The translations under genes were made by a program, and so were the position numbers. DNA of 64,000 nt, from assembly GCA_910587625.1 (NCBI GenBank), contig CAJUMW010000002.1, forward strand, positions 86,002-150,001. Reading direction: 5' to 3'. The notes under the pieces are model-generated. The model saw only the letters and a program-made list of their open reading frames with translations, was not told where the DNA came from and made no database searches. Of the stretch, positions 44,537 through 61,899 are shown in pieces. Positions within the stretch are counted from its first letter, which is position 1. Each line of letters opens with the position of its first letter. Source of the DNA: an uncultured Christensenellaceae bacterium. GTDB lineage: Bacteria; Bacillota; Clostridia; Christensenellales; Borkfalkiaceae.

Positions 44537-44565
44537 TTGCTATTTACACTATTATATGTTATAAT
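44537..44565 (+). promoter_or_regulatory. Sigma-A-type promoter candidate for the Hsp70/GTPase operon
   Basis: TTGCTA (44537-44542), 17 nt, TGtTATAAT extended -10 (44557-44565). Confidence 0.5.
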
Positions 44566-47353: not shown

Positions 47354-47384
47354 TCCGCCGACGCCCGTTTACGACGTCGGCGGA
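47354..47384 (+). other. Intercistronic GC-rich hairpin between the two Hsp70 genes
   Basis: TCCGCCGACG-cccgtttacga-CGTCGGCGGA, a 10-bp stem with no T-run after it. Confidence 0.5.
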
Positions 47385-47421: not shown

Positions 47422-49500
47422 ATGAAAGAAATAAACGTCGGCATAGATTTAGGAACTACATATTCCGCAGTGGCGGTGTTCGATAGCGCAAGCGGCAGCG
47501 TAAAAATACTTAAAAACCACTTGGAGGAAGAAACTACGCCCTCGGTCGTGTGCATAGAAAACGGCAACGTGCTCATCGGCGTCGAGGCAAAGGACGAGCA
47601 AGCCGCAGGCAATGTCGGTGTTGCCGCGTTCTATAAAAATATGATGGGCAACGACGATTTAAAACCCTATCTCGACGGACGGGAATACACTGCGGAGCAG
47701 CTTTCGGGAATTTTTTTAAGCAAGCTTAAAGAGTCGGTCGAGGGCGCGAACAACGTTAAAATAGGCGGCGCGGTAATAACCGTTCCCGCATACTTCAACG
47801 AGGCGCAGCGTCAGGCAACGATACGCGCGGGAGAGGCGGCCGGGCTTAAAGTGCTTAAAATTATCAACGAGCCGACGGCGGCAATTATCGCATACGGACT
47901 TACGGGCATCGGCAAACGCAACGTAATGGTCTATGATTTGGGCGGAGGCACGTTCGACGTGACTATAGCAAAAATCGACGGGGCAAACGTTCAGGTTATA
48001 GCGACCAACGGCAACCACCAGCTCGGCGGCAAGGATTGGGACAACGCACTTGTCGAAATGGTAACGTCGCAGTTCGAAAACGATTACGAAATAAGGCTTG
48101 CGGAATATCCCGAGGCATATAACGGACTTTTAGTCCAGTGCGAAAGGGCAAAAAAACAGCTTACTGCAATTCCATCGACTACAATTTCAATAACCTGTTC
48201 GGGTTATAAGGGCAGATATACCGTTACACGCGAGGAGTTTGACGCGAAAACTGCACCCTATCTCAACGAGACGCTTACGCTGTCCGAAAATTGCTTTTCG
48301 GAAATCGGCGGCGGCTTCGGCTGGCACTCGATAGACGAAGTGGTGCTTGTCGGCGGTTCCACGCGTATGCCTCAGGTATCCGAGCTGATAACAAAAGTTT
48401 TCGGCAAACCGCCCAAGATTATAGGCAACAAGGTGGATACCATTGTTGCGACGGGCGCGGCTATGCAGGCAAGTTTATGCACTTCGGGCACGATAACTTT
48501 AAACTTGCGGAGCTTCGGCGTCAAGACATCGGCAAACGGCGGCAGCGCGCCAGCAACTTTGACTTTGAGTAACGACAATATCAAGGACGTAACCTCGCAC
48601 AGCCTCGGAATGCTGGCGTTATCAAAGGACGGGGGCGATATTGTAAACAGTATAATTATAAAGAAAAACAGCCTTACTGGCGTTCCGTATGGCAGGCAAT
48701 ATAACTTCAAGGGGGAAAAACTTGAAGTCTATGTTTTGCAGGGAGAGCTTACTTCACCCTACGAATGTACTTTGCTCTACAAATACATAGTTACGGGAAT
48801 GGATAAAAACGCCAAAAACGAGTTTACCATAAACTTTCAATACAACCAGAACGGCGTAGTTGAAGTTACGGGCAATCTTAAAAACGGCGCGGCGTTAGCC
48901 GTGCAAAAGACAATTGTCGACGAGAGTATAGAGGAAATTATAGCAAGATTAAAGCGCGAGAGGGAAGAGGCTCAAAGCCGTAGGCGTTCACTCGACGTCA
49001 CGTTTGCTATCGATACTTCGGGCAGTATGGCAGGCTCGGGCATAAGGGAAGCCAAAAAATCAATTACAAAATTTATCGAAAAGCTCGATTTGAAGTACGC
49101 GCGCGTGTCGGTAATAAGCTTCGACAGCAATTACAGGTGGATTTGCAGAAACGATAAGTCGGCAGGTTCAATCAACTCGGCGGTTGAAAGACTTTCGGCG
49201 GACGGCGGCACCAGCGCAGACCCGTTTGAACTCTATCTTTCCGACGTAAATTTAAGCGTTGACGAGCAGAGGGTGATAATAGCTTTGACTGACGGGGAAT
49301 GGTTCTATCCCGACGAGGCAATAAGAAACGCGGACAATTTGAAATCGCGAGGAGTAATTATATATGCCGTCGGCGTGGACGGAGCGAATTACTCGTTCCT
49401 TGAAAAAATCGCTTCCCCCGGCGGAGCTAAAAAAATAGATTTGTCGCAGTTGACAAAGACGTTTTCGGACATTGCGTCGTCAATTGCTACCGAACAGTAA
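47422..49500 (+). CDS. Hsp70-family ATPase paralogue 2 fused to a C-terminal von Willebrand factor A (vWA) domain
   Basis: GIDLGTTYSAVAV, VYDLGGGTFDVTI, VVLVGGSTRMPQV, and an SBD-beta-like DVTSHSLGM... A short helix follows, then a vWA domain with MIDAS residues DTSGS..GGT..TDG (about 48991-49497). Confidence 0.88.
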   Translation: MKEINVGIDLGTTYSAVAVFDSASGSVKILKNHLEEETTPSVVCIENGNVLIGVEAKDEQAAGNVGVAAFYKNMMGNDDLKPYLDGREYTAEQLSGIFLSKLKESVEGANNVKIGGAVITVPAYFNEAQRQATIRAGEAAGLKVLKIINEPTAAIIAYGLTGIGKRNVMVYDLGGGTFDVTIAKIDGANVQVIATNGNHQLGGKDWDNALVEMVTSQFENDYEIRLAEYPEAYNGLLVQCERAKKQLTAIPSTTISITCSGYKGRYTVTREEFDAKTAPYLNETLTLSENCFSEIGGGFGWHSIDEVVLVGGSTRMPQVSELITKVFGKPPKIIGNKVDTIVATGAAMQASLCTSGTITLNLRSFGVKTSANGGSAPATLTLSNDNIKDVTSHSLGMLALSKDGGDIVNSIIIKKNSLTGVPYGRQYNFKGEKLEVYVLQGELTSPYECTLLYKYIVTGMDKNAKNEFTINFQYNQNGVVEVTGNLKNGAALAVQKTIVDESIEEIIARLKREREEAQSRRRSLDVTFAIDTSGSMAGSGIREAKKSITKFIEKLDLKYARVSVISFDSNYRWICRNDKSAGSINSAVERLSADGGTSADPFELYLSDVNLSVDEQRVIIALTDGEWFYPDEAIRNADNLKSRGVIIYAVGVDGANYSFLEKIASPGGAKKIDLSQLTKTFSDIASSIATEQ

Positions 49501-49538: not shown

Positions 49539-52328
49539 ATGGCAGCGGTTAAAACGAGAACTGCAGAAGAATTAAAACAGTCTAAATATAATTATTTTAT
49601 CGTCCTCGATTTGAGCGTCAACGAAAAGAATCCTACTACAATACTGCAGGCACTTAAAAAGAAGTTTCCGGCCAATCAGGGTACGCCCAAAGACCCTTAC
49701 TTAGCTCGGCTTTTGGAGTTAAAGGGGGATATGGAGCAGGTACTTGTAAACGACGCAAGATATGACGACGCTTCCGGACAGTACGTTGCAAAGAGCGGAA
49801 TAAGAAAGGAAGAGGGAGATAGGGCTAAAAACTTTAAGCTTTCCGAAGTTATGACTATTGTTAGGGTCAAGTGCCAATCAAACGGCATAATGTACAAGAC
49901 CGAGCTTAGAAAGCTGTGCGTAGACGCAAACAAGAAAGCCGTGTTCTTCGAATTTGCCGAGCTTGAAAAAAAGTTTAAAGACGAAAAGCTCGATTCGGTC
50001 GTAAAATACATAGACAACGAAACCAACATCATAAATTTTATAGCGTTCGACGATATTTCCGATTTGTTGCAGGTTGAAGGCTTTGCCGACTTATACGCAT
50101 ATCTAGGACTGACAAACTCGGCAAGCTCGCAGCAGATTTTGTCGGAAGAAAAGAGAATTACAAACGAAAAGCTTGCAAACACGGGCGACAAGGAAAAAAA
50201 GAACCGCATAAACGCCTTTTCTGGCAACATTCAGACGATATTCAAGACGCCGGCATCGAGAAAGCAGTACGACGACTATCTGAAATCGCGTGAAAGCGTT
50301 TGGTCGCAGTTCAAAATTAGAAAGGCGTACAGCAAGGAAATTTCGCTGAACGAGTATATAGATTTCGTCGAAAAGCTTATGAAGGCTTTGAATATCCGCT
50401 TGGACGACGCGCAAACTATGCTCGGCGCAGGTTTAAAAAACTACGGCTTTATAGTCACGGGCGGCACAGCTAACGGAGCCGAAAAGAGCAAAATGGGTAT
50501 TACCGACCTGTCCTCTTGCCGTTTCTGCGGTTCGCTGTATAAAAAGGGCGCAAAAAGTTGCCCCAACTGCGGAAAATTGCTTGTTTCGGCGTGCTGGAAC
50601 TGCGGCGCTTCAATGGATTTGACAGTCACAAGCGTCTGCGGCAAGTGCGGAGCGAGCGAGGCGTTAAAAAAGAGCTTTGCGGCGGAAGTTATAAATTTGA
50701 ACAAGCTTTTTCAGTCGGGACAGTACAAGGAGTATGCGTTAAAGAGCGAGGCGTTCAAGCGCACTTATTCAAGCTTTAACCAGCCGCGTTCGCAGGTGGA
50801 AAGGGAGATGGCGGCAATAACCAAGACCTCCGACGACATTGTTTCGAAACAGCGCGAAAAGGAAACTACTTCAAAAAACTATCTTGCTAAAATAAACGCG
50901 GCAATAACTTCGAGAAAGTATTTCGAGGCGCAAAATCTTTTAAGGCAGTTAAAGCAGGTCGTTCCCGACGCAAACGTTAAGGCGGAAGAGAGCAGAATAA
51001 ACGCCGTCATTGCCGAGGTTCAGCAAATTTACAGGCAGATATGCGCGCTCGGCTCTGACGAGGCAAGAATTATACCCGAGTATATGCGTCTTTACGAAAA
51101 GTGCGTTGACTATTCCGAGGCGCAGTCGGTTATAAAAAAATTCCCGCCCAAACCTCCCGTCGAAGTTACCGTATCCGTGAGCGAAAGGGGCAATATAATA
51201 AAGTGGAACGTTCGTCCCGACGACACTATCACATACTCGGTAGTCAGAAAAATAGGCGCGGCGCCGAGAAGCGCAAGCGACGGAGATTTGCTTGTTTCGG
51301 GTCTGCGCGCGTTTACGTTTACCGACCTTAAAGCCGAAAACGTAGTACCTTATTTTTACGGCGTTTTTGCAACAAGGCTGGGTAGCGATTCTGCACTAAC
51401 CTGCACCAAAGCTTCTTGCCAAAGGTACGCAAACGTCACTATAAAGAGCAGTAAAGTGCTTGTTAACGGGCTCAAAGTAGAGTTTGCCTCTCTTTCGGGC
51501 GTAAGTAAAGTCATAGTTGTGCGCTCAAACGACGCTACGCCGCCCAAGAGCATTTCAAGCGGTACCAAAATTCCCGTAGACGAAAACGGGTTCACCGATT
51601 CTACTTTGCCCGGTTCGGGATTATACGGCTATTTCATTGTCTGTGAGTACATTGTAAACGGCAAACCCGTGTACTCGTCGGGAATATCCGAAACTTTCGA
51701 GTTCTACGAAAGACCGTCGTTTGTGGAAAACGTCAGGTTCAAAAAGGAAGAGGGCAACCTTTTTTGCGTAACTTTCAACGAGCTGGCTGTGGGTAAATTT
51801 GATATTTACGCTTCAAAGACGGCTGTCGTCGGCTTGAAATCCAACGAGTATTACAATATTTCAAAGCTAAACGGGCTTACGGATATCGAGTGTAAAAACG
51901 TAAAGCCCACTTCGGTAAACTTCGAGCTGCCGGGCAGGGGAGATTGGTTCTTCTACCCCGTGTGCGTGCAAAAGAGCGAGTTTACGGTGGGAGACGAGTA
52001 TATCTACCGCGATACCTCCCCCAAGTCGGCGGTGGTGCAGTATGAAGTTAAAGTAAATAAAAACAGCACTGTTTCCATCGATTTTGCCTGCGACCACCTT
52101 GTGGAGCTTGACGCTGTGAGGGTTGTGGGGACTGTCGGCAGACGGCCGAGAAACGTAAACGACGGAGAATGCGTGTCCGTGCTTGACGGAATAAAATTCA
52201 AAAAACCGCTGTTCTCCAAGGAGTACAAGGCAAGCATAAAAGTGTCCGTAGAGGGACGTAATCGCGGCAACGTTTACGCAGTATTTGCCGAAAACGACCA
52301 AGGAATAATATTTAAGAGGAAAGGATAA
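49539..52328 (+). CDS. 929-aa multidomain protein: J-like domain lacking HPD, double zinc ribbon, helical region, C-terminal beta-sandwich-like repeats
   Basis: The J-like stretch DLYAYLGLTNSASSQQI..KLANTGDKEKK..TPASRKQYDDYL (about 50088-50282) has ANT where HPD is expected. Four CxxC pairs (CRFC..CPNC..CWNC..CGKC) lie at 50517-50648. The beta-rich C-terminal half is Fn3/Ig-like by pattern only. Confidence 0.7.
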   Translation: MAAVKTRTAEELKQSKYNYFIVLDLSVNEKNPTTILQALKKKFPANQGTPKDPYLARLLELKGDMEQVLVNDARYDDASGQYVAKSGIRKEEGDRAKNFKLSEVMTIVRVKCQSNGIMYKTELRKLCVDANKKAVFFEFAELEKKFKDEKLDSVVKYIDNETNIINFIAFDDISDLLQVEGFADLYAYLGLTNSASSQQILSEEKRITNEKLANTGDKEKKNRINAFSGNIQTIFKTPASRKQYDDYLKSRESVWSQFKIRKAYSKEISLNEYIDFVEKLMKALNIRLDDAQTMLGAGLKNYGFIVTGGTANGAEKSKMGITDLSSCRFCGSLYKKGAKSCPNCGKLLVSACWNCGASMDLTVTSVCGKCGASEALKKSFAAEVINLNKLFQSGQYKEYALKSEAFKRTYSSFNQPRSQVEREMAAITKTSDDIVSKQREKETTSKNYLAKINAAITSRKYFEAQNLLRQLKQVVPDANVKAEESRINAVIAEVQQIYRQICALGSDEARIIPEYMRLYEKCVDYSEAQSVIKKFPPKPPVEVTVSVSERGNIIKWNVRPDDTITYSVVRKIGAAPRSASDGDLLVSGLRAFTFTDLKAENVVPYFYGVFATRLGSDSALTCTKASCQRYANVTIKSSKVLVNGLKVEFASLSGVSKVIVVRSNDATPPKSISSGTKIPVDENGFTDSTLPGSGLYGYFIVCEYIVNGKPVYSSGISETFEFYERPSFVENVRFKKEEGNLFCVTFNELAVGKFDIYASKTAVVGLKSNEYYNISKLNGLTDIECKNVKPTSVNFELPGRGDWFFYPVCVQKSEFTVGDEYIYRDTSPKSAVVQYEVKVNKNSTVSIDFACDHLVELDAVRVVGTVGRRPRNVNDGECVSVLDGIKFKKPLFSKEYKASIKVSVEGRNRGNVYAVFAENDQGIIFKRKG

Positions 52329-52329
52329 A

Positions 52330-53448
52330 ATGTCGGGAAAAATTATTTGCCCCTATTGCTATACCGAACAAAAACTTAAACTTATGAAAAAAATTTGCAT
52401 AAGCGACGGTTGCGAGGAAAACACAAAAAACACAAAGTTTTCCGCAAAGGAGAGCAACTGCCCCAAATGCGGCAGCAACCTGCGCTATGCCTGCACTAAT
52501 CCCAAGTGCGGACACTCTATTGAAAAGGACGAGTTGGAGTGCAAAGACCCCCTGCCCATAGCTATTATCGGGGCAAGGTATTCGGGCAAATCCAACTATA
52601 TAGCCGTTGCCGTGCACGAGTTGCAGGTTAAGGGCAACAGATTCGGAATAGGTATCAGAGCCAACGCCGCGACGGCTTCCGTGTATTCACAGGAATACGA
52701 AGCGCCGGTTTTCAAGCGTCAGGTTCCAATTACCACCACGCGCGCCGCAACAAAGAAAAATAAGCGCGAGCCGCTTATATTTATGCTTACCACGGGACTG
52801 AATAAGGGTAAGCGCGGAACATTTCCGCTGTCATTCTATGATACCGCAGGGGAAAATATGGAAAAGAGCGACCTCGATACCGAGGAGTACGTCGGATATA
52901 TCTCCTATGCAAAGGGGCTTATCATACTTATGGACCCGTGGCAGATACCTTACGTCAAAGACAGGCTCGGCGGCATAATTCCGCCCGAGGCAAAGAACGC
53001 CATAGGTTTAAGTCCCTACGAAATTTTGGAGCGAGCTATTCGCGTCATACGCAGTCAGACCAAAATGAAGGTCAATGACAAAATCAAAATACCCATTGCA
53101 ATTGCGTTCAGTAAAATAGACTCGCTTGAAAGCGGCGGACTTTTGGAGGACGGCAGTTGCCTTACGCGCCCGTCGTCGCACATAGACGAGGGCAAGTATT
53201 CAAAGCTCGAACACGACGACACCAACAGCGACATAATGAGTATGCTTCAATACTTCGACGAGGAAGAGGCGGAAAGGTTTTTGAACCTTACTCGCAACAA
53301 TTTCGAGACATATTCGTTTTTCGGGTTTTCGTCGTTCGGCTGCGGACTTACGGGCGGCAAGCTCAGTCAAAAGGTCAAACCGAGAAGGGTGCTCGACCCG
53401 TTCCTTTGGCTGCTTAGCATAAACAAACGTATTCAGACTACAAAATAA
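52330..53448 (+). CDS. Zinc-ribbon plus small-GTPase-like P-loop protein (soluble paralogue)
   Basis: It starts 1 nt after the upstream stop. CPYC..C..C..CPKCG..CTNPKCGH. Walker A/G1 GARYSGKS (52570-52593), G3-like FYDTAGE, G4-like FSKID. C-terminal LDPFLWLL motif. Confidence 0.75.
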   Translation: MSGKIICPYCYTEQKLKLMKKICISDGCEENTKNTKFSAKESNCPKCGSNLRYACTNPKCGHSIEKDELECKDPLPIAIIGARYSGKSNYIAVAVHELQVKGNRFGIGIRANAATASVYSQEYEAPVFKRQVPITTTRAATKKNKREPLIFMLTTGLNKGKRGTFPLSFYDTAGENMEKSDLDTEEYVGYISYAKGLIILMDPWQIPYVKDRLGGIIPPEAKNAIGLSPYEILERAIRVIRSQTKMKVNDKIKIPIAIAFSKIDSLESGGLLEDGSCLTRPSSHIDEGKYSKLEHDDTNSDIMSMLQYFDEEEAERFLNLTRNNFETYSFFGFSSFGCGLTGGKLSQKVKPRRVLDPFLWLLSINKRIQTTK

Positions 53449-53462
53449 GGGGAATTGAAAAA

Positions 53463-56183
53463 ATGAGATATAAACAGTTGATTTATACGTCTTACAAAAA
53501 ATACAACTCGGACGTAACGGGTGAATCAAGCGGTTACGACGTGTTTGCGATGACGCCCGGTATAAGCGAAGAAGAGCGCGACGAGCTTATTGCAATGTTC
53601 ACAAACTATGCCGTTCCCAACGACCCGAGGTTGAACGATTTGGAAAATATCGAAAAGAACGTCGAGCTGTACGCGCCCAAACAGCGCGCATACCTCAAGC
53701 TGTCCACGGGCAGGTACTGCTGGTGTCAGGTTTCGCTTATGCCCTACGATTTCAGCGGACGTTACAACAGCATTTACTTTCACGCCGTATTATCGGATGA
53801 AGAGCCCGATTTTGCTCCCGTCGACTTTTTCGAAAACTTTACCTTTAAAACAAAGCTCACCGACGACGAGTTTCACGCGCGCGTTACGCCGCCCGAGCTC
53901 AGGGAGGAAAACATCGACGGCAAGCTTATGCAGAGGGCAAGGCAGACGGTTAAGTTCGAGCGCGCGGTTTTAACTAAAATTCTCAACTCTGTTTTATATT
54001 GCGTAAGAGAAAATAAGCCTCTGTTTTTAAATTGCAAGACGGAAGAGGCTTACGACGCAATAAAATCCGTGCTCGCATTTTTGCCCGTTTCGCTTGCAAA
54101 AGCCGCTTATTTTTCCACATACTCCTCCGACGAACAGGAGGACGGGCGCGCGTTCAGAATTTGCCATATGGGCGATGAATTCGGCTATTCAAACAGGCTT
54201 TCAAACACCTATGTAGCCGTTGCCGATTTAATTGAAAATAAATTTTCCGAACACATTCCCGACGACGCGTTTATTGCAAGGCTTGTCGAGTATGCGTACA
54301 CGAACGCGGCTAATTTGGACAGGTTAAAAGCGTTTTACGAAAATTATACGAAAGGCTCGCTCGGCTTTTCGTCGGAGGCGCTTGTCAACGCATACGACTT
54401 TATGTACACCGAAGCATACGAGCAGTTTGATTTGCACACTTTCAAATCGGTAATATCGGACGCGTACATAACTACCGTGCCCCAAAATGCGAGGGCGTCG
54501 AGAATAAAAGAATATCTTGCCGCAAATATGCCGGATGTGCGGGAGCGCGGCGTACTGCTCAATGAAATTTATAAGCTTACGGCAGATAAGCGAATTCTTA
54601 CCGACTACACAAGCGAGCTTTTGAAAATGGTTGTAGACGTCGAGCTTAAAACCGACGAAGCTGCGGAAATTTTAAAGAGCGTTTTCGGCTGCGATTTAAG
54701 AATGGTTGTTTTAGCCGAACTTGACACATACACAAATCTTTTGTCGTCAAACATCTCTGAAACCGCGGTGTTCGAGCTGGTTGTCGGATTGCTTTTGAGT
54801 GCGGAAAAGGTGGACAGAGCAAAGGCTGACGAGCTGTATTCGTTGCTCTTCAACGGAATTTCGGCTAAGGGTGACTTGAATTTGTTGACGGGCATGCTTT
54901 TGCCGAGCTTAAAAAATAGCGCATATTTCAACGTGTGCGTTAAAAAGATTTTTTCAAGCTACTGTAAAAATGCCGAGCACGCGGCATATTGGCTTGATTT
55001 CTGCATTAATTGTGCCGACGAAACTATACGCGACGTATTTTTAAACCTTACGCTCGAGTACGTCGGCAGCGACGAGCTTTTGCGTGTAGTCGCTGTCAAC
55101 CCTCAGATATGCAATCACATTCTGGCTCTGCTTAAAAAAATCGACCAAAAGAACCTTTGTAAGGACGCAATTTTCAATATTATTTGCAAGCTGCTTCGCG
55201 CGGCGCTTGCCGTATCTCCCGTTGCGGATACTGCGGTAAATATTATTAAATTTTACGACGTTTTGAAGTATGAACGCATAGGGGAGTTGTACGACATAAC
55301 TTACGAAGTTTTACAGGGCAACATTTCAAACGTGTTTATCAAACTTGCCGAGCAGTACGGAGACGATTATGTAAGCGCAATTGCGCGCGGTAAGTGGAGT
55401 AATTTTGCCGAAAATATTCTTATTTCGAGCATTCGTACCGACGAGGACGTAATTTCGAGATATATAAAGAAGTATTATGTAAAGGGCAACTTCCGCGAGT
55501 GTTACGACGGAATTATGTCGGCAATCGAGTTTGGGGACGACACCCGGCAGTGGTTGTTCTACGGCAGGCTTTTAAACGAAGTAAAGGGACTGCACGATAA
55601 CGCTTTAACTAAGGTATATACCTTGCTAAACGCCAAACTTTTCGATATTTCTCACAGTGACAGAAAGGCTGTTGCAAAGGTAATTTCGGACATTTGCGCT
55701 ATATCCGACATACGCGTTTCAAAGGAAATAGAACTTGTTTCGAGACTTATTAACTTTGACGGAAAATATAAGACGGCTGTTGAACTTGAGGACTTTATTT
55801 TAGCAGTTTGCTCAAACGATGATAAGGTCGGTTCGGGAGTGTTCGCCTACTACTATGACGTACTTTTGGGCGTTTCGCTTGTAATTGTCAAAAAGAAAAA
55901 GCCGTCAAAGCTTTTGTCGCTCATCTACGCAAGCGGCTTGGAAGACGAGTATATTGCAAAGCTTTGGGACGTCTATTTTAAAAAGGACAAAAAAGCGCAG
56001 ATTATGTATATGCTCGAGCTTATGCGCGAGGATATAAGCTGTGCGGACAGTGATTACAAAAACAGTCTTTTAAAATATTTTTACGGACATTCCGACGAGA
56101 AGTTTATAGCTAAGTTCAATAAATTGCTGTCAAAAAGCAAGAACGATAAATTTGCGGCTTCGGCGGAAAAATATAAAAATTGA
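53463..56183 (+). CDS. 906-aa predominantly helical protein, function unknown (possible GTPase-associated partner)
   Basis: Good SD (AAGGGGA). The N-terminus is MRYKQLIYTSY....GYDVFAMTPGIS.. followed by ..YDFSGRYNSIYFHAVL. The rest is a helix-rich repeat-like sequence. No catalytic motif seen. Confidence 0.7.
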   Translation: MRYKQLIYTSYKKYNSDVTGESSGYDVFAMTPGISEEERDELIAMFTNYAVPNDPRLNDLENIEKNVELYAPKQRAYLKLSTGRYCWCQVSLMPYDFSGRYNSIYFHAVLSDEEPDFAPVDFFENFTFKTKLTDDEFHARVTPPELREENIDGKLMQRARQTVKFERAVLTKILNSVLYCVRENKPLFLNCKTEEAYDAIKSVLAFLPVSLAKAAYFSTYSSDEQEDGRAFRICHMGDEFGYSNRLSNTYVAVADLIENKFSEHIPDDAFIARLVEYAYTNAANLDRLKAFYENYTKGSLGFSSEALVNAYDFMYTEAYEQFDLHTFKSVISDAYITTVPQNARASRIKEYLAANMPDVRERGVLLNEIYKLTADKRILTDYTSELLKMVVDVELKTDEAAEILKSVFGCDLRMVVLAELDTYTNLLSSNISETAVFELVVGLLLSAEKVDRAKADELYSLLFNGISAKGDLNLLTGMLLPSLKNSAYFNVCVKKIFSSYCKNAEHAAYWLDFCINCADETIRDVFLNLTLEYVGSDELLRVVAVNPQICNHILALLKKIDQKNLCKDAIFNIICKLLRAALAVSPVADTAVNIIKFYDVLKYERIGELYDITYEVLQGNISNVFIKLAEQYGDDYVSAIARGKWSNFAENILISSIRTDEDVISRYIKKYYVKGNFRECYDGIMSAIEFGDDTRQWLFYGRLLNEVKGLHDNALTKVYTLLNAKLFDISHSDRKAVAKVISDICAISDIRVSKEIELVSRLINFDGKYKTAVELEDFILAVCSNDDKVGSGVFAYYYDVLLGVSLVIVKKKKPSKLLSLIYASGLEDEYIAKLWDVYFKKDKKAQIMYMLELMREDISCADSDYKNSLLKYFYGHSDEKFIAKFNKLLSKSKNDKFAASAEKYKN

Positions 56184-56367: not shown

Positions 56368-57315
56368 ATGGGTTATTTAATTGGTTTTGGTATCATACTC
56401 GGTATAATAGCCGGTATTTGTTACGGAATATACACGTTATGCGTAATTATCTGGAATATGCAGGTATGCTATCACGGCAGTATGGACGCTATGTTCAGTG
56501 TCACGCTGATTATTGTCGTTTTGTTGGCTGCTTTGGTTGTAGTTTGTTTAATTGTTGCGGCATTGTTTGAATTGGACGGATTGAAAACCGTTGTATTGCG
56601 CATTATGTTGCCCGCAGCGATAGGCTTTTTGGCTCTTTCGGGCATAGTTTATATTTACGGCTATTGCGAACCTGTATTTTTGGGTGTTGACGCATTAAGT
56701 GACCCTGCGTATAACAATTATTTTTTGAATACAGAACGGGATATAATGGTCAATGATTTGAGTCCGTTTACTACAATTCAGGCTTGGGTCATATTGATAA
56801 GCGGAACTTTGCTTTTCATTGCCGCAGCATTTTCGATTATAGCGGCGCTGATATCGTCCGTCCGTTACGGAGATATATATCTCGGCAGTGCATTCAGTGT
56901 GTTGTTTAAATGCTTATACCGCATATTTTTACCTGTTTTAATTCTTGTTGCGGTGCTCGTAGGCTGGTACTATTTAACCACTATCGTTCTTTGGGACTAT
57001 GATTTATTCGATTTGATTATTCACGGCATAGCAACCTCGGGCGCGCTGCTCGGAGCGGTAGTCGGGTTTGCTTTTCTTGTAAACAGACAGCCGCTTGCCG
57101 CCGCCTTTTCACTCGGGCTTGCCGCGGCTGTGGCATTTGTAAGCTACACCGTGTTCGGCGCAAAGATACTGCTTGATTTGATGAGCGAGTATTATCTGTT
57201 TATAATTTTAGGTTTCATAGGGTTATACTTATTGCTCGGCGTTGTTTACTGTCTTACAAGAATTAAAGTAATAAGAAATATCATAAGACGTGCAAAATAT
57301 ATGTATTGGTTATAA
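56368..57315 (+). CDS. Polytopic membrane protein (about 8 TM), function unknown
   Basis: 315 aa, almost entirely hydrophobic helices. SD TGAGGT upstream. Confidence 0.75.
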   Translation: MGYLIGFGIILGIIAGICYGIYTLCVIIWNMQVCYHGSMDAMFSVTLIIVVLLAALVVVCLIVAALFELDGLKTVVLRIMLPAAIGFLALSGIVYIYGYCEPVFLGVDALSDPAYNNYFLNTERDIMVNDLSPFTTIQAWVILISGTLLFIAAAFSIIAALISSVRYGDIYLGSAFSVLFKCLYRIFLPVLILVAVLVGWYYLTTIVLWDYDLFDLIIHGIATSGALLGAVVGFAFLVNRQPLAAAFSLGLAAAVAFVSYTVFGAKILLDLMSEYYLFIILGFIGLYLLLGVVYCLTRIKVIRNIIRRAKYMYWL

Positions 57316-57330
57316 TTATTCGGAGAAAAT

Positions 57331-58731
57331 ATGAAAAAACAAAGATTGGAAGAACCTGCAAGGACTAAACTGTTTTGGATTCCCATTTACAACATTCTTT
57401 TTTATACCGTCAAAGAAATTCTTTTGGACGTATGGGATTTGGCGTCGACTGTCGGCAATAAATTTTTCCGCCTGCTCTGGGTGGTAGTGTTTCCCTTTCT
57501 TCTGGTAATTTATCCGGCTACCTGTCTTGTACTGCTGCTGGTAATTATAGTTTTACTTTTTGTTACGCTGGTTAACTATATTTTCGGCGGCGTCAGCTAT
57601 GTGGTGGACAGCTTGTATTTAAAAATTCACGGAATAGGGCTTGTGTGTCCCGCGTGCAACAACAAGTATCAGTTGCCGACATACATATGTCCAAGATGTA
57701 ACGCCCAACATAAGAACCTGCGCCCCGGCAGGTACGGCATTGCAAAGCGCACCTGTAAGTGCGGCGCAAAGCTGCCCACAACGTTCTTTAACGGCAGGCA
57801 GCATCTTGACGCCATATGCCCTAACCCGGCTTGCCGCTATGCTTTCAAATCGAAGATACTGCCGGCACGCCCCATATGTATTCCCATTATCGGCGGCGTA
57901 TCCTCGGGTAAAACAAGCCTTATAAACGCAGGTATAGACGGGCTGAATAAATATTGCCAAATCCCCGACAATAAAATGGAGTTCGAGTATTGCTCGAACG
58001 AGGACGAGCAGAGGCACAAGAGAAACCTTGAAATTTTAAAGACGAGGAACACCGACAAGACTCATAAACAGCAGTTCGACTCGTACAAGTTCTATTTCTC
58101 TCCTCAGGGCGCAAAGGTAAAGAACAGGGTTTACGTCTATGACGTTGCCGGAGAGGTCTACGACGCCAAAAAGCAGAATATTGTTGAAAAGACGCAGGTT
58201 TTCGACTTTACAAACAGCTTGCTGTTCGTATTGGACCCTCTGTCTATCGACGATTTTTACGACGACTGCGTTCAGGCAAAGGTGCCCAATCTCGAAAGAT
58301 ACAAGCGTTCGGACAGAAGTATGAACGACGTTGTTACAAATATGATAAACAGCCTCGGCGTGTTTGCAAGTCTTACGCCCGAAAGGTGTAAAAAGGTGTT
58401 TGTAGCGATAGTTATTACAAAGGGCGACTTGCCGCTAATTAAAGACCAAATCGGTGACGAGTACGTCGCAGAGCTTGCAAGGCAGAACAGAACGACATGG
58501 AATAGGGCTAAAAATATTGCCTGCGAGCAGTTCCTTGACAAGTATCAGGCTATGAACTTTCTCAACATAATAAGGAATAAGTTTGAAAATTATCAGTTTT
58601 TCACAACCAGCTCGTGGAGCGGAGAACAGAACAAGTACGTTGCGGAAAATGCCGAGGACCCGTTCCTTTGGCTGATTGATATGGAAAGTCCCGAAATTGA
58701 CCTTAAAACAAAGTGGAACAGCAATAAATAG
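57331..58731 (+). CDS. Membrane-anchored zinc-ribbon plus small-GTPase-like P-loop protein (paralogue of 52330-53448)
   Basis: Two N-terminal TM helices. CPACN..CPRCN..CKCG..CPNPAC. G1 GGVSSGKT (57892-57915), G3-like VYDVAGE, G4-like ITKGD. C-terminal EDPFLWLI motif shared with the soluble paralogue. Confidence 0.75.
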   Translation: MKKQRLEEPARTKLFWIPIYNILFYTVKEILLDVWDLASTVGNKFFRLLWVVVFPFLLVIYPATCLVLLLVIIVLLFVTLVNYIFGGVSYVVDSLYLKIHGIGLVCPACNNKYQLPTYICPRCNAQHKNLRPGRYGIAKRTCKCGAKLPTTFFNGRQHLDAICPNPACRYAFKSKILPARPICIPIIGGVSSGKTSLINAGIDGLNKYCQIPDNKMEFEYCSNEDEQRHKRNLEILKTRNTDKTHKQQFDSYKFYFSPQGAKVKNRVYVYDVAGEVYDAKKQNIVEKTQVFDFTNSLLFVLDPLSIDDFYDDCVQAKVPNLERYKRSDRSMNDVVTNMINSLGVFASLTPERCKKVFVAIVITKGDLPLIKDQIGDEYVAELARQNRTTWNRAKNIACEQFLDKYQAMNFLNIIRNKFENYQFFTTSSWSGEQNKYVAENAEDPFLWLIDMESPEIDLKTKWNSNK

Positions 58732-58744
58732 GAGGTCGCTTAAA

Positions 58745-59335
58745 ATGGGTTCGACTTATTCGGCGGTGTGCCCGGGGTGCGGCGGCAGCCCAAAACCCGG
58801 TACAAACATATGCGAGTTTTGCGGAAAAGAGCTGTTTATAACTACTTTCAATCCGCTTTTCAATATGAATTTTCCCGACGTAAACAAGTATATGAGGTCT
58901 TATTCCTCGGGCGGATTCGGAGAAACCGACGAGCAAAAGGCAAAGCGGCTTATGGCGCTTGGGCTATGTCAATTAAAATTAAAACTCTACGATAAGGCGG
59001 CGCAGAGCTTCGAAGAGGTAGTAAATATCGCGTACGACTGTGCTGAGGCATATTACTGTGCGGCGTTGTGCGTGTTCAAGGGCAACAGACCCTTTCTTTC
59101 AAACATTAAAAGCGTCGAAAGGGCGGAACAGCTTTTAAGTGCCGCACTGTCCGTAAGCAGAAAGGGAATATATTATCTGTTTGCCGCTTTTATAAAAAAG
59201 GACTTTTACGAGCGTAAGTTTTATAAGACGAGCCCGAGCAGCAGGGACTATAAGGCCGAAGCAGATAAATTGGGCGTGCCGCAGGGAGATAAAACTTCGC
59301 TCGAGCAGCTTTTAAACACAAGAATAGATATTTAA
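58745..59335 (+). CDS. Zinc-ribbon protein with TPR-like helical repeats
   Basis: The ATG at 58745 is preceded by AGGAGG. CPGCG..CEFCG lies at 58769-58822. Helical hairpins follow: ALGLCQLKLKLYDKAAQSFEEVV..AEAYYCAALCVFKG. Confidence 0.65.
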   Translation: MGSTYSAVCPGCGGSPKPGTNICEFCGKELFITTFNPLFNMNFPDVNKYMRSYSSGGFGETDEQKAKRLMALGLCQLKLKLYDKAAQSFEEVVNIAYDCAEAYYCAALCVFKGNRPFLSNIKSVERAEQLLSAALSVSRKGIYYLFAAFIKKDFYERKFYKTSPSSRDYKAEADKLGVPQGDKTSLEQLLNTRIDI

Positions 59336-59345
59336 GGAGTAGAAT

Positions 59346-60377
59346 ATGACGCTTTATTCGGTTATAAAAAACCAAAGTCCGTTGCCCTGCCTTTTATGGA
59401 AACACCCGGGTGAGGACTTCAATAACAACTCGCAGCTTACCGTATCCGAGTCGGAGGTGGCGCTGTTTTATAAAGAGGGAGTAATAGTTCAGGAGTACAC
59501 GGGCGGCAGGTATACGCTCAACACCAATAACGTTCCCTTTATAAGGCGCATAATTTCGAAGTTTTCAGGCGGTGTTTCGGCGTTCAACTGCGCAGTATAT
59601 TTTATAAGCAAGACGCATGCAATGGACGTGAAGTGGGGAACTCAATCTCCCATTCCCATGCGCGACGCACAGTACGGGTTTGCCGTCGGCGTGCGCGCGA
59701 GGGGGTCTTATACCGTTCAGGTAAAGGACGCAAAGAAATTTCTTTTAAAGATGCTCGGCACAAATATGACGACGTATTCGGTGGAGGAGTTAAACAGTTG
59801 TTTCAGAACGGCGTTCCAGCAAAAGATAAAGGTCGAAGTTGCGACCGTTATGAAAAACCTTAAAATGACTATTCTCGATATGGCTACGGAATACGAGAAT
59901 ATCGCAAACAAACTTCACCCCGTTATAAACGGCTTGTTGGATGAATACGGGCTTCGCTGTGTAAACTTTTATGTTTCGGATATTTCCATACCGCAGGACG
60001 ACCCCAACTATCAAAAGATAAACGAGGCGTATGCGCGCGTCGGTTCGAGAAATATCGAGGGAATAACCTGGCAGCAGGACACACAGGCAAACATCTTGCG
60101 CGATATGGCTAACAATCAGGGCTTCGGAGGAATGGGCGCAGGTATGGGTATGGGCTTTGCCGCCGGAAATATTTTCGGCAGTATGGCTAACGGCGCTTTC
60201 TCGCAGCAGGCTCCTCAACAGCAGGGCGCAAAGTGCCCGTCGTGCGGAACGGATAATGCAAAGTCGGCAAAATTCTGTTCCAACTGCGGCAAACCGCTTG
60301 CGGCTGTCTGCCCCAATTGCGGCGCTTCTTTGACGTCGGGCGTAAAATTCTGCTCGAACTGCGGATTTAAAGTGTAG
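59346..60377 (+). CDS. SPFH/band-7-like protein with Gly/Met-rich linker and C-terminal double zinc ribbon (B. subtilis YdjI / COG4260-like)
   Basis: N-terminus LLWKHP.EDF...SQL.V.ESE.A.F.K.G. followed by a beta/alpha SPFH-like core. Linker GFGGMGAGMGMGFAAGNIFG. CPSCG..CSNCG..CPNCG..CSNCG at 60234-60362. Confidence 0.78.
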   Translation: MTLYSVIKNQSPLPCLLWKHPGEDFNNNSQLTVSESEVALFYKEGVIVQEYTGGRYTLNTNNVPFIRRIISKFSGGVSAFNCAVYFISKTHAMDVKWGTQSPIPMRDAQYGFAVGVRARGSYTVQVKDAKKFLLKMLGTNMTTYSVEELNSCFRTAFQQKIKVEVATVMKNLKMTILDMATEYENIANKLHPVINGLLDEYGLRCVNFYVSDISIPQDDPNYQKINEAYARVGSRNIEGITWQQDTQANILRDMANNQGFGGMGAGMGMGFAAGNIFGSMANGAFSQQAPQQQGAKCPSCGTDNAKSAKFCSNCGKPLAAVCPNCGASLTSGVKFCSNCGFKV

Positions 60378-60387
60378 AGGTGTACAT

Positions 60388-61068
60388 ATGAAACTGCTTC
60401 CCAAAATAATTATATACGTCTTGTTTTTAGTTGCGTATTCTCTGCTTGTATTTCTTCTCAACGCCGATTATACCGTCGTGTTCGGTCTGGCATACGCGTT
60501 TGCGGCGCTTGCCGTGCTGGTGCAATTTACCTGCACGATACTCGTCGATAAAAAGATTAAGGCTGAATTTTTGACCTATCATCTGGTCTTTGTATTGCTG
60601 TCGTACACGGTTATCAACCTTATTGCAAATACCCTTTGCGCGTTTTTCCACAGGGAGATTACCTATCTTGTACCGTTGCTTGTAAACGTGTGCCTGCTTG
60701 CAGGTTATACAATTTACTTTATAATTCATTTCAACAGCGTTAAAGCCATTGAAAGCAACGTCAAAGAGGAGCGCGCTCGCTTGCAGTTTGTAAGGGTTGC
60801 GGCGCAAAAGCTCGAACTGATAATGAGTTCCCTTACGGATATTTCCGTTAGCAAAAAAGTGGAAATACTTTACGACGCAGTGAGGGGCAGTCAGGCGCTC
60901 GGCAACGAGGGCGTTGCCGCCCTCGAGCTTGAAATTTTGTCCGACATAGATATGCTGCAAATTTTATATGACGACGATAATTTCGAGGGTGCGGACAGAC
61001 TTTCGCAGAGCATTTTGACAAAATTAAACAGGCGCAACGCATATATAACTTCTTCACAGGTGGTGTAA
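60388..61068 (+). CDS. 4-TM membrane protein with cytoplasmic helical tail, function unknown
   Basis: 226 aa. SD GAGGTG. Four hydrophobic helices, then a helical segment of about 100 aa. Confidence 0.7.
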   Translation: MKLLPKIIIYVLFLVAYSLLVFLLNADYTVVFGLAYAFAALAVLVQFTCTILVDKKIKAEFLTYHLVFVLLSYTVINLIANTLCAFFHREITYLVPLLVNVCLLAGYTIYFIIHFNSVKAIESNVKEERARLQFVRVAAQKLELIMSSLTDISVSKKVEILYDAVRGSQALGNEGVAALELEILSDIDMLQILYDDDNFEGADRLSQSILTKLNRRNAYITSSQVV

Positions 61069-61851
61069 ATGAGGCTTTTAAAAATACTTACCGCGTTGTT
61101 TGTGCCCTTTCCCGATATTACGGGGCAAGAGTTTAAAAGCATGTTCAATTTCAAAATGTGGGGCAAAGCCAATTTGCATAGGTTGTCCGTTTACGAACAG
61201 AACAGACTGTTTTTTACCTCGGGCGCGTCTAAAATCAACTACGTTGCAATGCTTGTTTGGCTGCTTATCGGCGTCGCGCTGGTAACTTCGGGCTTAATTT
61301 TTGCAATAGTTTTGGGCGTTTTGCTTGTCGTATCGGTTCTGAGCCTGCTTGTTATGAGGATAATGTCGATACCTAAAATTACAAGGTTGGATGTGGAAAA
61401 TAATATTCAAATAATAGTCGGCGGAATCGAGCAGGAGGGGTTGAATGCAAACGGAATAGATGCGTCTCAGGTGAATATAGCAGGCGATCCGCTCTGCCTT
61501 ATGCAGTACATAGACGAGGATATTGCAGACCGTCACTACGTCAAGGACAAAATGAGCTCGAACATTTCGGTCACATATTTCTACGTCGGTATAGACCAAT
61601 TTTTTATATATAAAGTGAGGTGTTCGCTCATCTGCGAGTTTGAAAAAGTCTGTGAGTCGTACGATTATTTTTACAGAGATATTATGAGCTCGAATATAAG
61701 AACGGACGCTTCCCGTCCGAATTGCTATATGCTCGAACTTGTGTTTTTAAACAGCCGAACGGTAAGTTTTGAGTTCAGCGGCGGACCCGAAGTGCAGCAG
61801 ACTTTGTTTGCAATCAAAAATTTAATAAGAGATAAGAGAAATACCATATAA
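61069..61851 (+). CDS. Membrane-anchored protein (2 TM plus a C-terminal soluble domain), function unknown
   Basis: The ATG directly abuts the upstream stop (TAAATG). Hydrophobic hairpin MLVWLLIGVALVTSGLIFAIVLGVLLVVSVLSLLVM. Confidence 0.65.
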   Translation: MRLLKILTALFVPFPDITGQEFKSMFNFKMWGKANLHRLSVYEQNRLFFTSGASKINYVAMLVWLLIGVALVTSGLIFAIVLGVLLVVSVLSLLVMRIMSIPKITRLDVENNIQIIVGGIEQEGLNANGIDASQVNIAGDPLCLMQYIDEDIADRHYVKDKMSSNISVTYFYVGIDQFFIYKVRCSLICEFEKVCESYDYFYRDIMSSNIRTDASRPNCYMLELVFLNSRTVSFEFSGGPEVQQTLFAIKNLIRDKRNTI

Positions 61852-61852
61852 T

Positions 61853-61889
61853 AAAACTGCCGCAAAGCTTTAAACTTTGCGGCAGTTTT
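61853..61889. terminator. Bidirectional intrinsic terminator closing the Hsp70/GTPase operon
   Basis: AAAACTGCCGCAAAG-ctttaaa-CTTTGCGGCAGTTTT followed by ATT. Confidence 0.8.
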
Positions 61890-61899
61890 ATTATATAAA

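Follow-up and report, generated by a model that had tools for sequence, protein, structure and literature searches.

Few molecular machines are understood as well as the Hsp70s, whose lid is regarded as integral to substrate trapping. The question of what such a machine may do once the lid is exchanged for an unrelated module is raised by a gene in contig CAJUMW010000002.1 from an uncultured Christensenellaceae bacterium. The stretch analysed, here called the window, comprises 64,000 nucleotides (nt; positions 86,002 to 150,001 of the contig), and all coordinates refer to it unless stated otherwise. A preliminary description of this DNA had read the gene as an Hsp70 in which the lid is replaced by a von Willebrand factor A (vWA) domain with a metal ion-dependent adhesion site (MIDAS). 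Comparison of sequences confirms that the fusion is genuine and conserved, and not an artefact of sequencing or assembly. It represents an Hsp70-vWA family that has swapped the lid for a metal-dependent adhesion domain in at least 217 species, ranging from gut and rumen Clostridia and their relatives to methanogenic archaea.

Domain architecture of the fusion protein

The gene is a single open reading frame (ORF) of 692 codons that opens with ATG and contains the motifs quoted in the preliminary description (coordinates in Table 1). In Pfam, residues 6-530 belong to HSP70 (PF00012, E 1.4e-97), and this match extends to profile position 534. The C-terminal region, whose match to vWA profiles had been named as decisive for the assignment, is recognised as VWA at residues 525-668 (PF00092, E 5.6e-19), and also by VWA_2 (PF13519, E 5.3e-10). 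A phmmer search against the PDB aligns residues 6-354 with the nucleotide-binding domains (NBDs) of DnaK proteins (E 4.5e-70), and residues 411-522 only weakly with the beta part of the DnaK substrate-binding domain (SBD-beta; 7.6 bits). The protein does not reach the NCBIfam equivalogs for DnaK (NF001413 / TIGR02350: 296.3 bits against a cut-off of 648; 283.2 bits against 822.55), and DnaK is an unsuitable label for the annotation of Hsp70-vWA genes.

The structure was modelled with AlphaFold2 (AF2) from 24 homologues, with a mean predicted local distance difference test (pLDDT) of 85.2 and a predicted template modelling score (pTM) of 0.68. In the model, the NBD (1-355) is followed by eight beta strands (395-497), one helix (503-520), and a beta/alpha alternation (524-691) whose pLDDT lies mostly at 82-94. 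The top Foldseek matches in the PDB are the NBD plus SBD-beta of domain-docked Hsp70s, the best being AMPylated GRP78 (5o4p, TM 0.82 relative to the target); ATP-bound DnaK (4jn4, 4b9q) is also found. The complete NBD, the SBD-beta-like segment, and the short charged helix leading into a vWA domain at the place of the lid, all proposed in the preliminary description, are thus borne out by profile searches and structure prediction alike.

The SBD-beta bears motifs similar to those of DnaK (HSLGM, NSIIIKKNS, VYVLQGE, YNQNGVVEV). The helix after it, which reads IEEIIARLKREREEAQSR, is the only one between SBD-beta and vWA, and lid helices B-E are absent from both the alignment and the model. The SBD-alpha lid is thus reduced to the equivalent of helix A.

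The linker between NBD and SBD-beta (356-394) is extended. It consists of two short hydrophobic strands around a variable loop rich in Gly, Ala and Ser, after which comes a conserved motif, I-x-D-(I/V)-T. Compared with the VLLL-D linker of DnaK, one I/V position survives together with the conserved Asp and Thr of D-(I/V)-T; the remainder is polar. Ahead of this motif lies an insert of some 28 residues with a disordered loop, which the model renders as two strands (357-361 and 379-383) flanking residues 366-376, with pLDDT <50 in the loop. In the vWA domain, the MIDAS pattern previously described as intact is indeed present, with D531-x-S533-x-S535 (nt 49012-49026), T597 and D624.

Conservation and distribution

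A sequencing error joining two adjacent genes had been raised as a possible refutation of the interpretation of this ORF. Among the best 120 clusters at 90% identity, 119 hold proteins of 687-735 amino acids (aa) with both PF00012 and PF00092, which are 51-63% identical to the fusion protein with 100% coverage; one cluster, with 29 member sequences, is 99% identical to it. When the C-terminal 332 aa were searched against 1.84 billion representatives at 50% identity, 399 matches were found at E<=1e-10. Around 90 of the top 150 representatives are proteins of 675-750 aa matched at approximately residues 360-690, with identities down to about 28%, and the position of the match in proteins of this length identifies them as the same SBD-beta plus vWA fusion.

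In a scan of GTDB with one genome per species, 217 species genomes encode the fusion. The best match (96%) comes from a mouse-gut metagenome-assembled genome (MAG) of an uncultured Christensenella sp. Other carriers include Clostridia MAGs, Erysipelotrichaceae, Anaeroplasma, Treponema, Bacillales, Lachnospiraceae and Ruminococcus flavefaciens Y1 among the bacteria, and Methanosarcina spp. and many Methanomassiliicoccales/Methanomethylophilaceae among the archaea. Single Solibacteraceae and Porphyromonadaceae bins also carry it.

The conservation of individual residues was counted over 78 distinct full-length homologues, in all of which the junction between Hsp70 and vWA is collinear. In the Hsp70 part, D9, T12, T13, K72, E150, D172, G174-G176, T177, G311-G312, S313 and R315 are invariant (78/78), and T314 is found in 77/78. 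The actin-fold NBD thus keeps its catalytic residues and the GGxTR phosphate-2/adenosine motif, and the ATPase looks catalytically competent as far as its sequence can tell. The MIDAS residues D531, S533, S535 and D624 are likewise present in 78/78, as is W627, and the position of Thr597 is occupied by T in 59, by N in 17 and by G in two of the 78 proteins; judged by these residues, the MIDAS looks ligand-competent. The presence of the fusion in 217 species and in the 29 independent sequences of the 99% cluster excludes an assembly artefact, and the cluster, representative, GTDB and 78-homologue comparisons all return the same architecture.

Some close paralogues (P0104, P0143 and P0209) keep the NBD, the SBD-beta and the helix, and have another C-terminal domain of approximately 210-260 aa in place of the vWA domain; in P0104 and P0143, this alternative domain has no significant match in Pfam. 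P0104 (L087:7173-9509) is encoded at the same recO-adjacent site as the fusion gene. The next ORF (L087:9526-10017) carries a near-identical Hsp70 N-terminus, which indicates that the gene was duplicated in tandem in this locus and that the C-terminal module was exchanged.

The gene cluster and its relation to a known system

The fusion gene is the third of a same-strand cluster of 12 genes at approximately 44.58-61.85 kb. The spacers are mostly 0-40 nt long, with exceptions before the fusion gene (93 nt) and after the GAP1 gene (184 nt), and the cluster is flanked by recO on one side and by a convergent P-II/DUF1538 pair on the other. This multi-gene context, with its GrpE-like protein, second Hsp70, J-like protein, DO-GTPases and GAP1-N2, was overlooked in the preliminary description, which had related the vWA domain to MoxR-type or TerY-type surroundings. 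Such surroundings are rejected here: domain searches of the 12 operon proteins detected no AAA+ ATPase, PP2C phosphatase or kinase, and no MoxR, VMAP or iSTAND genes in the operon.

Table 1. Positions of the fusion gene, its domains and the associated features in the window.
Feature	Position	Strand	Basis
Hsp70-vWA fusion ORF, 692 aa	47422..49500	+	single ORF, ATG start
Hsp70 NBD, residues 1-355, full catalytic set	47422..48486	+	phmmer against PDB, alignment, AF2, conservation
Extended interdomain linker, residues 356-394	48487..48603	+	alignment, AF2
SBD-beta, residues 395-497, eight strands	48604..48912	+	phmmer against PDB, alignment, AF2, Foldseek
Single charged helix, residues 503-520, equivalent of lid helix A	48928..48981	+	alignment, AF2
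vWA domain, residues 524-691	48991..49494	+	Pfam, alignment, AF2, conservation
Promoter-like site TTGCTA-17-TATAAT, extended TG, upstream of first cluster gene	44537..44565	+	consensus match only
GrpE-like protein, 352 aa	44578..45636	+	Pfam GrpE below cut-off, kept across loci
Hsp70A, second Hsp70 paralogue, 552 aa	45670..47328	+	Pfam HSP70, hhalign
GC-rich hairpin with 12-bp stem, in the 93 nt that separate the fusion gene from Hsp70A	47354..47384	.	
DZRp, 929 aa, J-like, double zinc ribbon, helical/TPR-like, FN3-like	49539..52328	+	Pfam DZR, profile searches
DO-GTPase, 372 aa, N-terminal zinc ribbons	52330..53448	+	Pfam DO-GTPase2 PF19993
GAP1, 906 aa, GAP1-N2 and weak GAP1-M	53463..56183	+	Pfam PF20013, PF20014
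Multi-pass membrane protein, 315 aa, without known family	56368..57315	+	ORF, Pfam
Second DO-GTPase, 466 aa, N-terminal hydrophobic segments, zinc ribbons	57331..58731	+	Pfam DO-GTPase2 PF19993
Four tightly packed genes: zinc-ribbon/weak-TPR protein, SPFH (Band_7_1) with double zinc ribbon, two membrane proteins	58676..61851	+	
Hairpin with 20-bp stem at the cluster end, facing the convergent P-II/DUF1538 genes	61848..61894	.	

The domain content of the operon is that of the HSP70/GrpE-themed GAP1-N2 DO-GTPase system, a conflict system predicted by Kaur, Burroughs, Iyer and Aravind (eLife 2020; PMC7159879), whose work also defined the Pfam families of the DO-GTPase and GAP1. According to the available portion of that paper, the HSP70/GrpE theme combines an HSP70, GrpE, sometimes a second HSP70, a rapidly evolving protein whose FNIII repeats are joined to DnaJ or TPR, and two GTPases, of which one bears zinc ribbons and the other transmembrane helices; the HSP70 and tubulin components are proposed to form NTP-dependent multimeric assemblies. 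The operon in the window shares with this description a zinc-ribbon DO-GTPase2, a membrane-anchored second DO-GTPase, GAP1-N2, two HSP70s and GrpE, together with the Firmicute host, and DZRp, with its J-like domain and weak TPR and FN3 matches, would correspond to the FNIII-type protein. On these sequence features, the operon is a member of that system. The same portion of the paper uses the pairing of an NTPase with a vWA co-chaperone, in the style of MoxR-vWA, as a framework for such systems, and the earlier idea of an NTPase teamed with a vWA module agrees with it. As far as that text goes, the system is thus an already known one, described computationally in 2020 and widespread, and after the 2020 survey the architecture of the fusion is not unexpected. 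In the literature searched, Kaur et al. 2020 was the only paper on such systems.

Several features depart from the description of Kaur et al. (PMC7159879), to the extent that it was available. It does not mention a vWA domain in the place of the lid on the main HSP70, which is present here. The second HSP70 is described there as 'sans its peptide-binding domain', whereas Hsp70A in the window has a divergent SBD-beta. The J-like domains of the system lack the HPD tripeptide, unlike a plain DnaJ, and a five-gene version without GAP1, which differs from the GAP1-N2 description, is common in Methanomassiliicoccales. The additions made here are the explicit replacement of the lid by vWA and the strictness with which it is conserved, the lack of HPD in the J-like domains, the presence of an SBD-beta in Hsp70A, and the GAP1-less archaeal form.

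Both GTPases contain Cys-x2-Cys pairs and, in Walker B, the Glu that marks DO-GTPases within the TRAFAC class. The first has a Walker A 'GARYSGKS' and a Walker B 'DTAGE', and its score for PF19993 is 27.3 bits against a cut-off of 27; the second, with hydrophobic N-terminal segments, has 'GGVSSGKT' and 'DVAGE' and scores 35.4 bits. The GAP1 gene starts 14 nt past the first DO-GTPase gene, and its product matches PF20013 (E 1.9e-13, 51 bits against a cut-off of 24) and, below the cut-off, PF20014 (18.5 bits).

Conservation of the gene neighbourhood

Hidden Markov models (HMMs) built locally from the window proteins were mapped onto 86 loci. On the contigs of three homologues, the gene order of the window is kept and the flanking genes differ; the same holds for L001-L006, and the neighbourhood recurs in 80 GTDB loci. 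In Firmicutes, the order is GrpE-like, Hsp70A, Hsp70-vWA, DZRp, DO-GTPase, GAP1, DO-GTPase, and an extra upstream DO-GTPase is found in Lachnospiraceae, Ruminococcus and Methanosarcina. In Methanomassiliicoccales, the order is Hsp70-vWA, DZRp, DO-GTPase, GrpE-like, Hsp70, and the local HMMs detected no GAP1.

Presence was counted for four families in the loci with enough flanking sequence, namely 35 bacterial and 18 archaeal ones. A DO-GTPase is encoded in 33/35 bacterial and 16/18 archaeal loci; the GrpE-like protein and the second Hsp70 each occur in 31/35 and 18/18, and GAP1 in 31/35 and 1/18, respectively. The near-universal next gene is a member of the DZRp family; in 66/70 loci it starts no more than 1.5 kb after the fusion gene.

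The archaeal five-gene form without detectable GAP1 was observed in L049-L086, from Methanomassiliicoccales, Methanomethylophilaceae and Thermoplasmata, and usually adjoins feoB and a gene for a Sel1-repeat protein. This recurrent position suggests vertical inheritance of the five-gene form in Methanomassiliicoccales. A conserved upstream ORF of approximately 720-740 aa in archaeal loci was considered as a divergent GAP1 and rejected, as it encodes FeoB; the adjoining ORF of about 317 aa encodes the Sel1-repeat protein. The large downstream ORFs of archaeal loci have no Pfam match. Four of the loci (L053, L054, L055 and L059) lie on contigs that binning assigned to Ruminococcus sp., Lachnospiraceae, Bacteroides ovatus and Bifidobacteriaceae. 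As their genes follow the archaeal order and encode almost the same proteins, these are probably mis-binned Methanomassiliicoccales contigs.

Some loci hold additional genes. An optional cassette between DZRp and DO-GTPase was observed at L003:15338-19382 and L005:15291-19052, and also in L013, L017 and L028; it codes for a VirD4/TraG/TrwB-like coupling-protein ATPase of about 445 aa and two or three genes without a Pfam match. In L019, L026, L029 and L033, the J-like N-terminal module is also encoded on its own, in the interval from the fusion gene to DZRp.

Putative partner proteins of the fusion

DZRp is named for a double zinc ribbon (Pfam DZR, residues 327-371). A profile of its first 330 aa, built from 23 homologues, matched J-domains exclusively among PDB entries (38 chains, best DNAJA3, E 4e-6). 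The match covers profile positions 176-242, which correspond to about residues 183-250 of DZRp (approximately 50085-50288) in an alignment read by eye, and Pfam DnaJ is weakly detected in 7/23 members. Every DZRp subfamily opens with the J-like segment 'NYFIAFKI / NWYVILELEFDPP / NYCQLLGLNP...KWAND'. The HPD tripeptide is absent from all 23 aligned homologues, and archaeal versions read 'KWAND' where DnaJ has 'KYHPD'.

Over its full length, the DZRp profile gives weak matches to TPR (E 0.003) and FN3 (E 0.04). The AF2 model, built from three homologues, is poor (pLDDT 51.6) apart from one confident beta-sandwich region, for which almost all Foldseek matches are FN3 domains (E 0.015-0.17). Only three word-sharing homologues of DZRp were found in 5.8 billion proteins, as against thousands for Hsp70-vWA, which supports a very fast evolution of its sequence. 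A conserved N-terminal 'RTxEEL' was considered as a universal ligand for the MIDAS or the SBD, and was dropped because it occurs in one DZRp subfamily only.

Hsp70A matches Pfam HSP70 at residues 5-364 (E 2.8e-82), and its NBD is 40% identical to that of the fusion protein. Nothing significant was found in Pfam for its C-terminus; hhalign later identified these 187 aa (46765-47325) as SBD-beta through a match to the profile of the fusion family (probability 93%, E 3e-7). As this C-terminus is a divergent SBD-beta, both Hsp70 paralogues can be described as lid-less proteins made of NBD and SBD-beta.

The GrpE-like protein has a coiled-coil-like N-terminal region followed by a divergent GrpE domain, which Pfam detects at residues 188-344 below its cut-off (E 1.6e-4, 21.9 bits against 25.8). 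It is predicted from this similarity to be a nucleotide-exchange factor.

Proposed mechanism

The fusion protein is, on balance, probably the central chaperone-like component of this HSP70/GrpE-themed GAP1-N2 DO-GTPase system, where it would act as an ATP-driven remodeller. The sequence provides an apparently ATPase-competent Hsp70 with an SBD-beta of the peptide-binding type, in which the lid is cut down to helix A and replaced by a seemingly MIDAS-competent vWA domain. The context provides a co-encoded set that consists of a GrpE-like protein, a second lid-less Hsp70, a DO-GTPase and DZRp. In the proposed mechanism, the J-like domains of DZRp would dock on the NBD and linker of the Hsp70, uniting both proteins and recruiting one or both Hsp70s. 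As these J-like domains lack HPD, activation may need another input, for example a switch formed by the DO-GTPase and GAP1. The MIDAS of the vWA domain would hold an acidic residue of a partner within the system, and the SBD-beta would grip an extended segment. DZRp is the leading candidate for this partner; a zinc-ribbon protein had already been suggested in the preliminary description, and the sole, indirect hint at it is the place of DZRp directly after the fusion gene in 66/70 loci.

Helix A of a canonical Hsp70 changes its place between SBD-beta and NBD in the course of the ATP cycle. Since the vWA domain is attached directly to helix A, the nucleotide cycle would move a partner bound to the MIDAS, and by analogy with Hsp70 allostery, the binding and hydrolysis of ATP could shift this partner relative to the segment held by the SBD-beta. 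The outcome may be the remodelling or assembly of a sensor or effector complex at the membrane, controlled by the DO-GTPase and GAP1, and the GrpE-like protein would reset the nucleotide cycle. If this holds, the Hsp70 cycle would have found a new use, in pulling or assembling one specific partner as opposed to folding many clients, and the fusion would offer a tractable biochemical entry to the DO-GTPase 'conflict systems'. The architecture is unusual within the Hsp70 field and easily testable.

A functional analogy is found in the pairs of MoxR AAA+ ATPases with vWA proteins (RavA-ViaA, CoxD-CoxE and the MoxR-vWA ternary systems of Kaur et al.), which likewise unite an NTPase remodeller with a MIDAS-bearing vWA that binds a peptide of the partner. 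In the window, the NTPase is an actin-fold Hsp70 in place of an AAA+ protein, and both parts lie in one polypeptide. Midasin (Rea1), an AAA+ ATPase of eukaryotic ribosome assembly, grips an acidic residue of its client with a C-terminal MIDAS and exerts an ATP-driven pull. It resembles the fusion in carrying an ATPase motor and a MIDAS in cis, but the two are unrelated in motor fold and in biology, and the sequence relationship does not go past the vWA/MIDAS fold. By analogy, the fusion can be seen as a putative cis version of the MoxR-vWA pair, comparable to Midasin.

The comparison with the canonical DnaK-DnaJ-GrpE system shows what has been kept and what has been lost. The catalytic residues of the NBD, the core motifs of SBD-beta, and partners of the GrpE and J type are all recognisable; the SBD-alpha lid is missing, the linker is extended and partly degenerate, the J-like domains are devoid of HPD, the GrpE domain scores below the Pfam cut-off, and the DnaK equivalog thresholds are not reached. 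Another Hsp70 fusion is known from CoCoNuT systems, in which CnuD/CnuCD consist of an Hsp70-like NBD and SBD fused to McrB/McrC (Bell et al., eLife 2024; PMC11090510). In both cases, an Hsp70-like NBD plus SBD is joined by fusion to a predicted defence system that contains a GTPase. In the CoCoNuT units, the ATPase motifs are degenerate, RNA binding is predicted, and the vWA domains are encoded as separate TerY-like genes (PMC11090510), whereas the family of the window fusion has invariant ATPase motifs and carries the vWA domain itself as the fused part.

A bolder version of the proposal, which is rather unlikely, would see a self-contained five-gene machine extending from Clostridia to methanogens, often without GAP1, and formed by the Hsp70-vWA, the HPD-less J-like protein, the GrpE-like protein, the second lid-less Hsp70 and one DO-GTPase. 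Its vWA domain would convert the swing of helix A into a Midasin-like pull on a MIDAS client, gated by the GTPase in the place of an HPD-bearing J-domain. We know of no Hsp70 with a Midasin-like mode of action.

Several observations weigh against the fusion as the ATP-driven remodeller of a conflict system. The HPD motif lacking from the J-like domains of DZRp is essential in canonical ATPase stimulation. The VLLL linker is only partly conserved, with I/V at one position, and canonical allostery may for this reason not operate. In 17/78 homologues, Asn takes the place of the MIDAS Thr, and the restriction of 'RTxEEL' to one DZRp subfamily leaves this motif out as a universal MIDAS ligand. The domain arrangement of the AF2 model (pTM 0.68) is not usable as evidence of mechanism. 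The literature searched holds no experimental paper on any DO-GTPase system, Kaur et al. 2020 being the sole find, and among the PADLOC defence models there is none for this system and nothing relevant. The evidence for a conflict role is weak in the present case.

Alternative explanations

The same molecular machine could serve a housekeeping function and not a conflict, for example by assembling, under regulation, a complex near the membrane or one resembling a cytoskeleton; in some lineages this dedicated apparatus would be passed on vertically. This is possible but doubtful. The observations that speak for it are also those that speak against a conflict role: no copy of the SBD-vWA module was found in the plasmid and phage collections searched, the same recO-adjacent site is shared by a related species (a 69%-identical relative), and the five-gene module is stably fixed beside feoB and the Sel1-repeat gene in many Methanomassiliicoccales species. 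Furthermore, domain searches recognised no toxic effector domain in the window operon, and an SPFH protein and membrane proteins are co-encoded. Variable flanks, fast evolution, duplications and swaps, and optional cassettes are nevertheless hallmarks of diversifying conflict systems, and all of them are seen here. The flanks of the Clostridia loci vary (secA/prfB/tsaD, recN/argS, glycosidases), the homologues of DZRp are as few as reported above, paralogues have been duplicated in tandem with their C-terminal modules swapped, and some loci have taken up cassettes such as the one with the VirD4/TraG-like ATPase.

The vWA domain might also work without a separate partner, either as a surrogate lid over the SBD-beta of its own protein, or through ATP-regulated oligomers of Hsp70-vWA and Hsp70A that would be the output of the system. 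Its location exactly at the lid position, right after helix A, fits this explanation, as does the presence of two lid-less Hsp70 paralogues, the second being encoded in most bacterial and all archaeal loci counted. The exposed hydrophobic strands of the long linker could be bound in trans, and lid-truncated BiP (7a4u), which is among the Foldseek matches, crystallises as such an oligomer. The NTP-dependent HSP70/tubulin multimers proposed in the available portion of Kaur et al. (PMC7159879) point in the same direction. However, an invariant MIDAS, with DxSxS and D in 78/78 homologues, is typical of a vWA domain that binds the carboxylate of a partner, and Hsp70A has no vWA domain at all. The paralogues P0104, P0143 and P0209 bear another C-terminal domain at the vWA position, and this variation among relatives favours a swappable adaptor over a structural lid. 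Action without a partner is accordingly the less likely explanation, and quite an improbable one.

It is highly improbable that the gene encodes nothing more than a diverged DnaK paralogue with a general role in proteostasis, or that two adjacent genes were fused by artefact, even though NCBI and JGI call homologues 'Hsp70 family protein' or 'molecular chaperone DnaK' and the NBD is approximately 40-45% similar to DnaK, since its equivalog score is far under the cut-off (296 against 648 bits), the lid is missing and the SBD-beta reaches a mere 7.6 bits against DnaK, the gene is embedded in a DO-GTPase operon in 80/80 loci, and the 217 species and 29 independent sequences of the 99% cluster rule against an artefact.

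Possible accessory genes and regulatory features

The four distal genes of the cluster are not conserved in the other loci, with the exception of the 96%-identical relative (L007), and may belong to the system as accessory components that vary. One of them, at 59346-60377, combines an SPFH/Band_7_1 domain (E 1e-41) and two C-terminal zinc ribbons in a single protein. The zinc-ribbon/TPR-like ORF is listed with a TTG start and in this form shares 56 nt (58676-58731) with the 3' end of the second DO-GTPase gene; its true start is probably the internal Met 'MGSTYSAVCPGCGG'. The hairpin in the spacer upstream of the fusion gene, with arms CCGCCGACG...CGTCGGCGG, has a terminator score on the minus strand alone. 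It could set the ratio of both Hsp70s, whether by attenuation, as a processing site or through mRNA stability.

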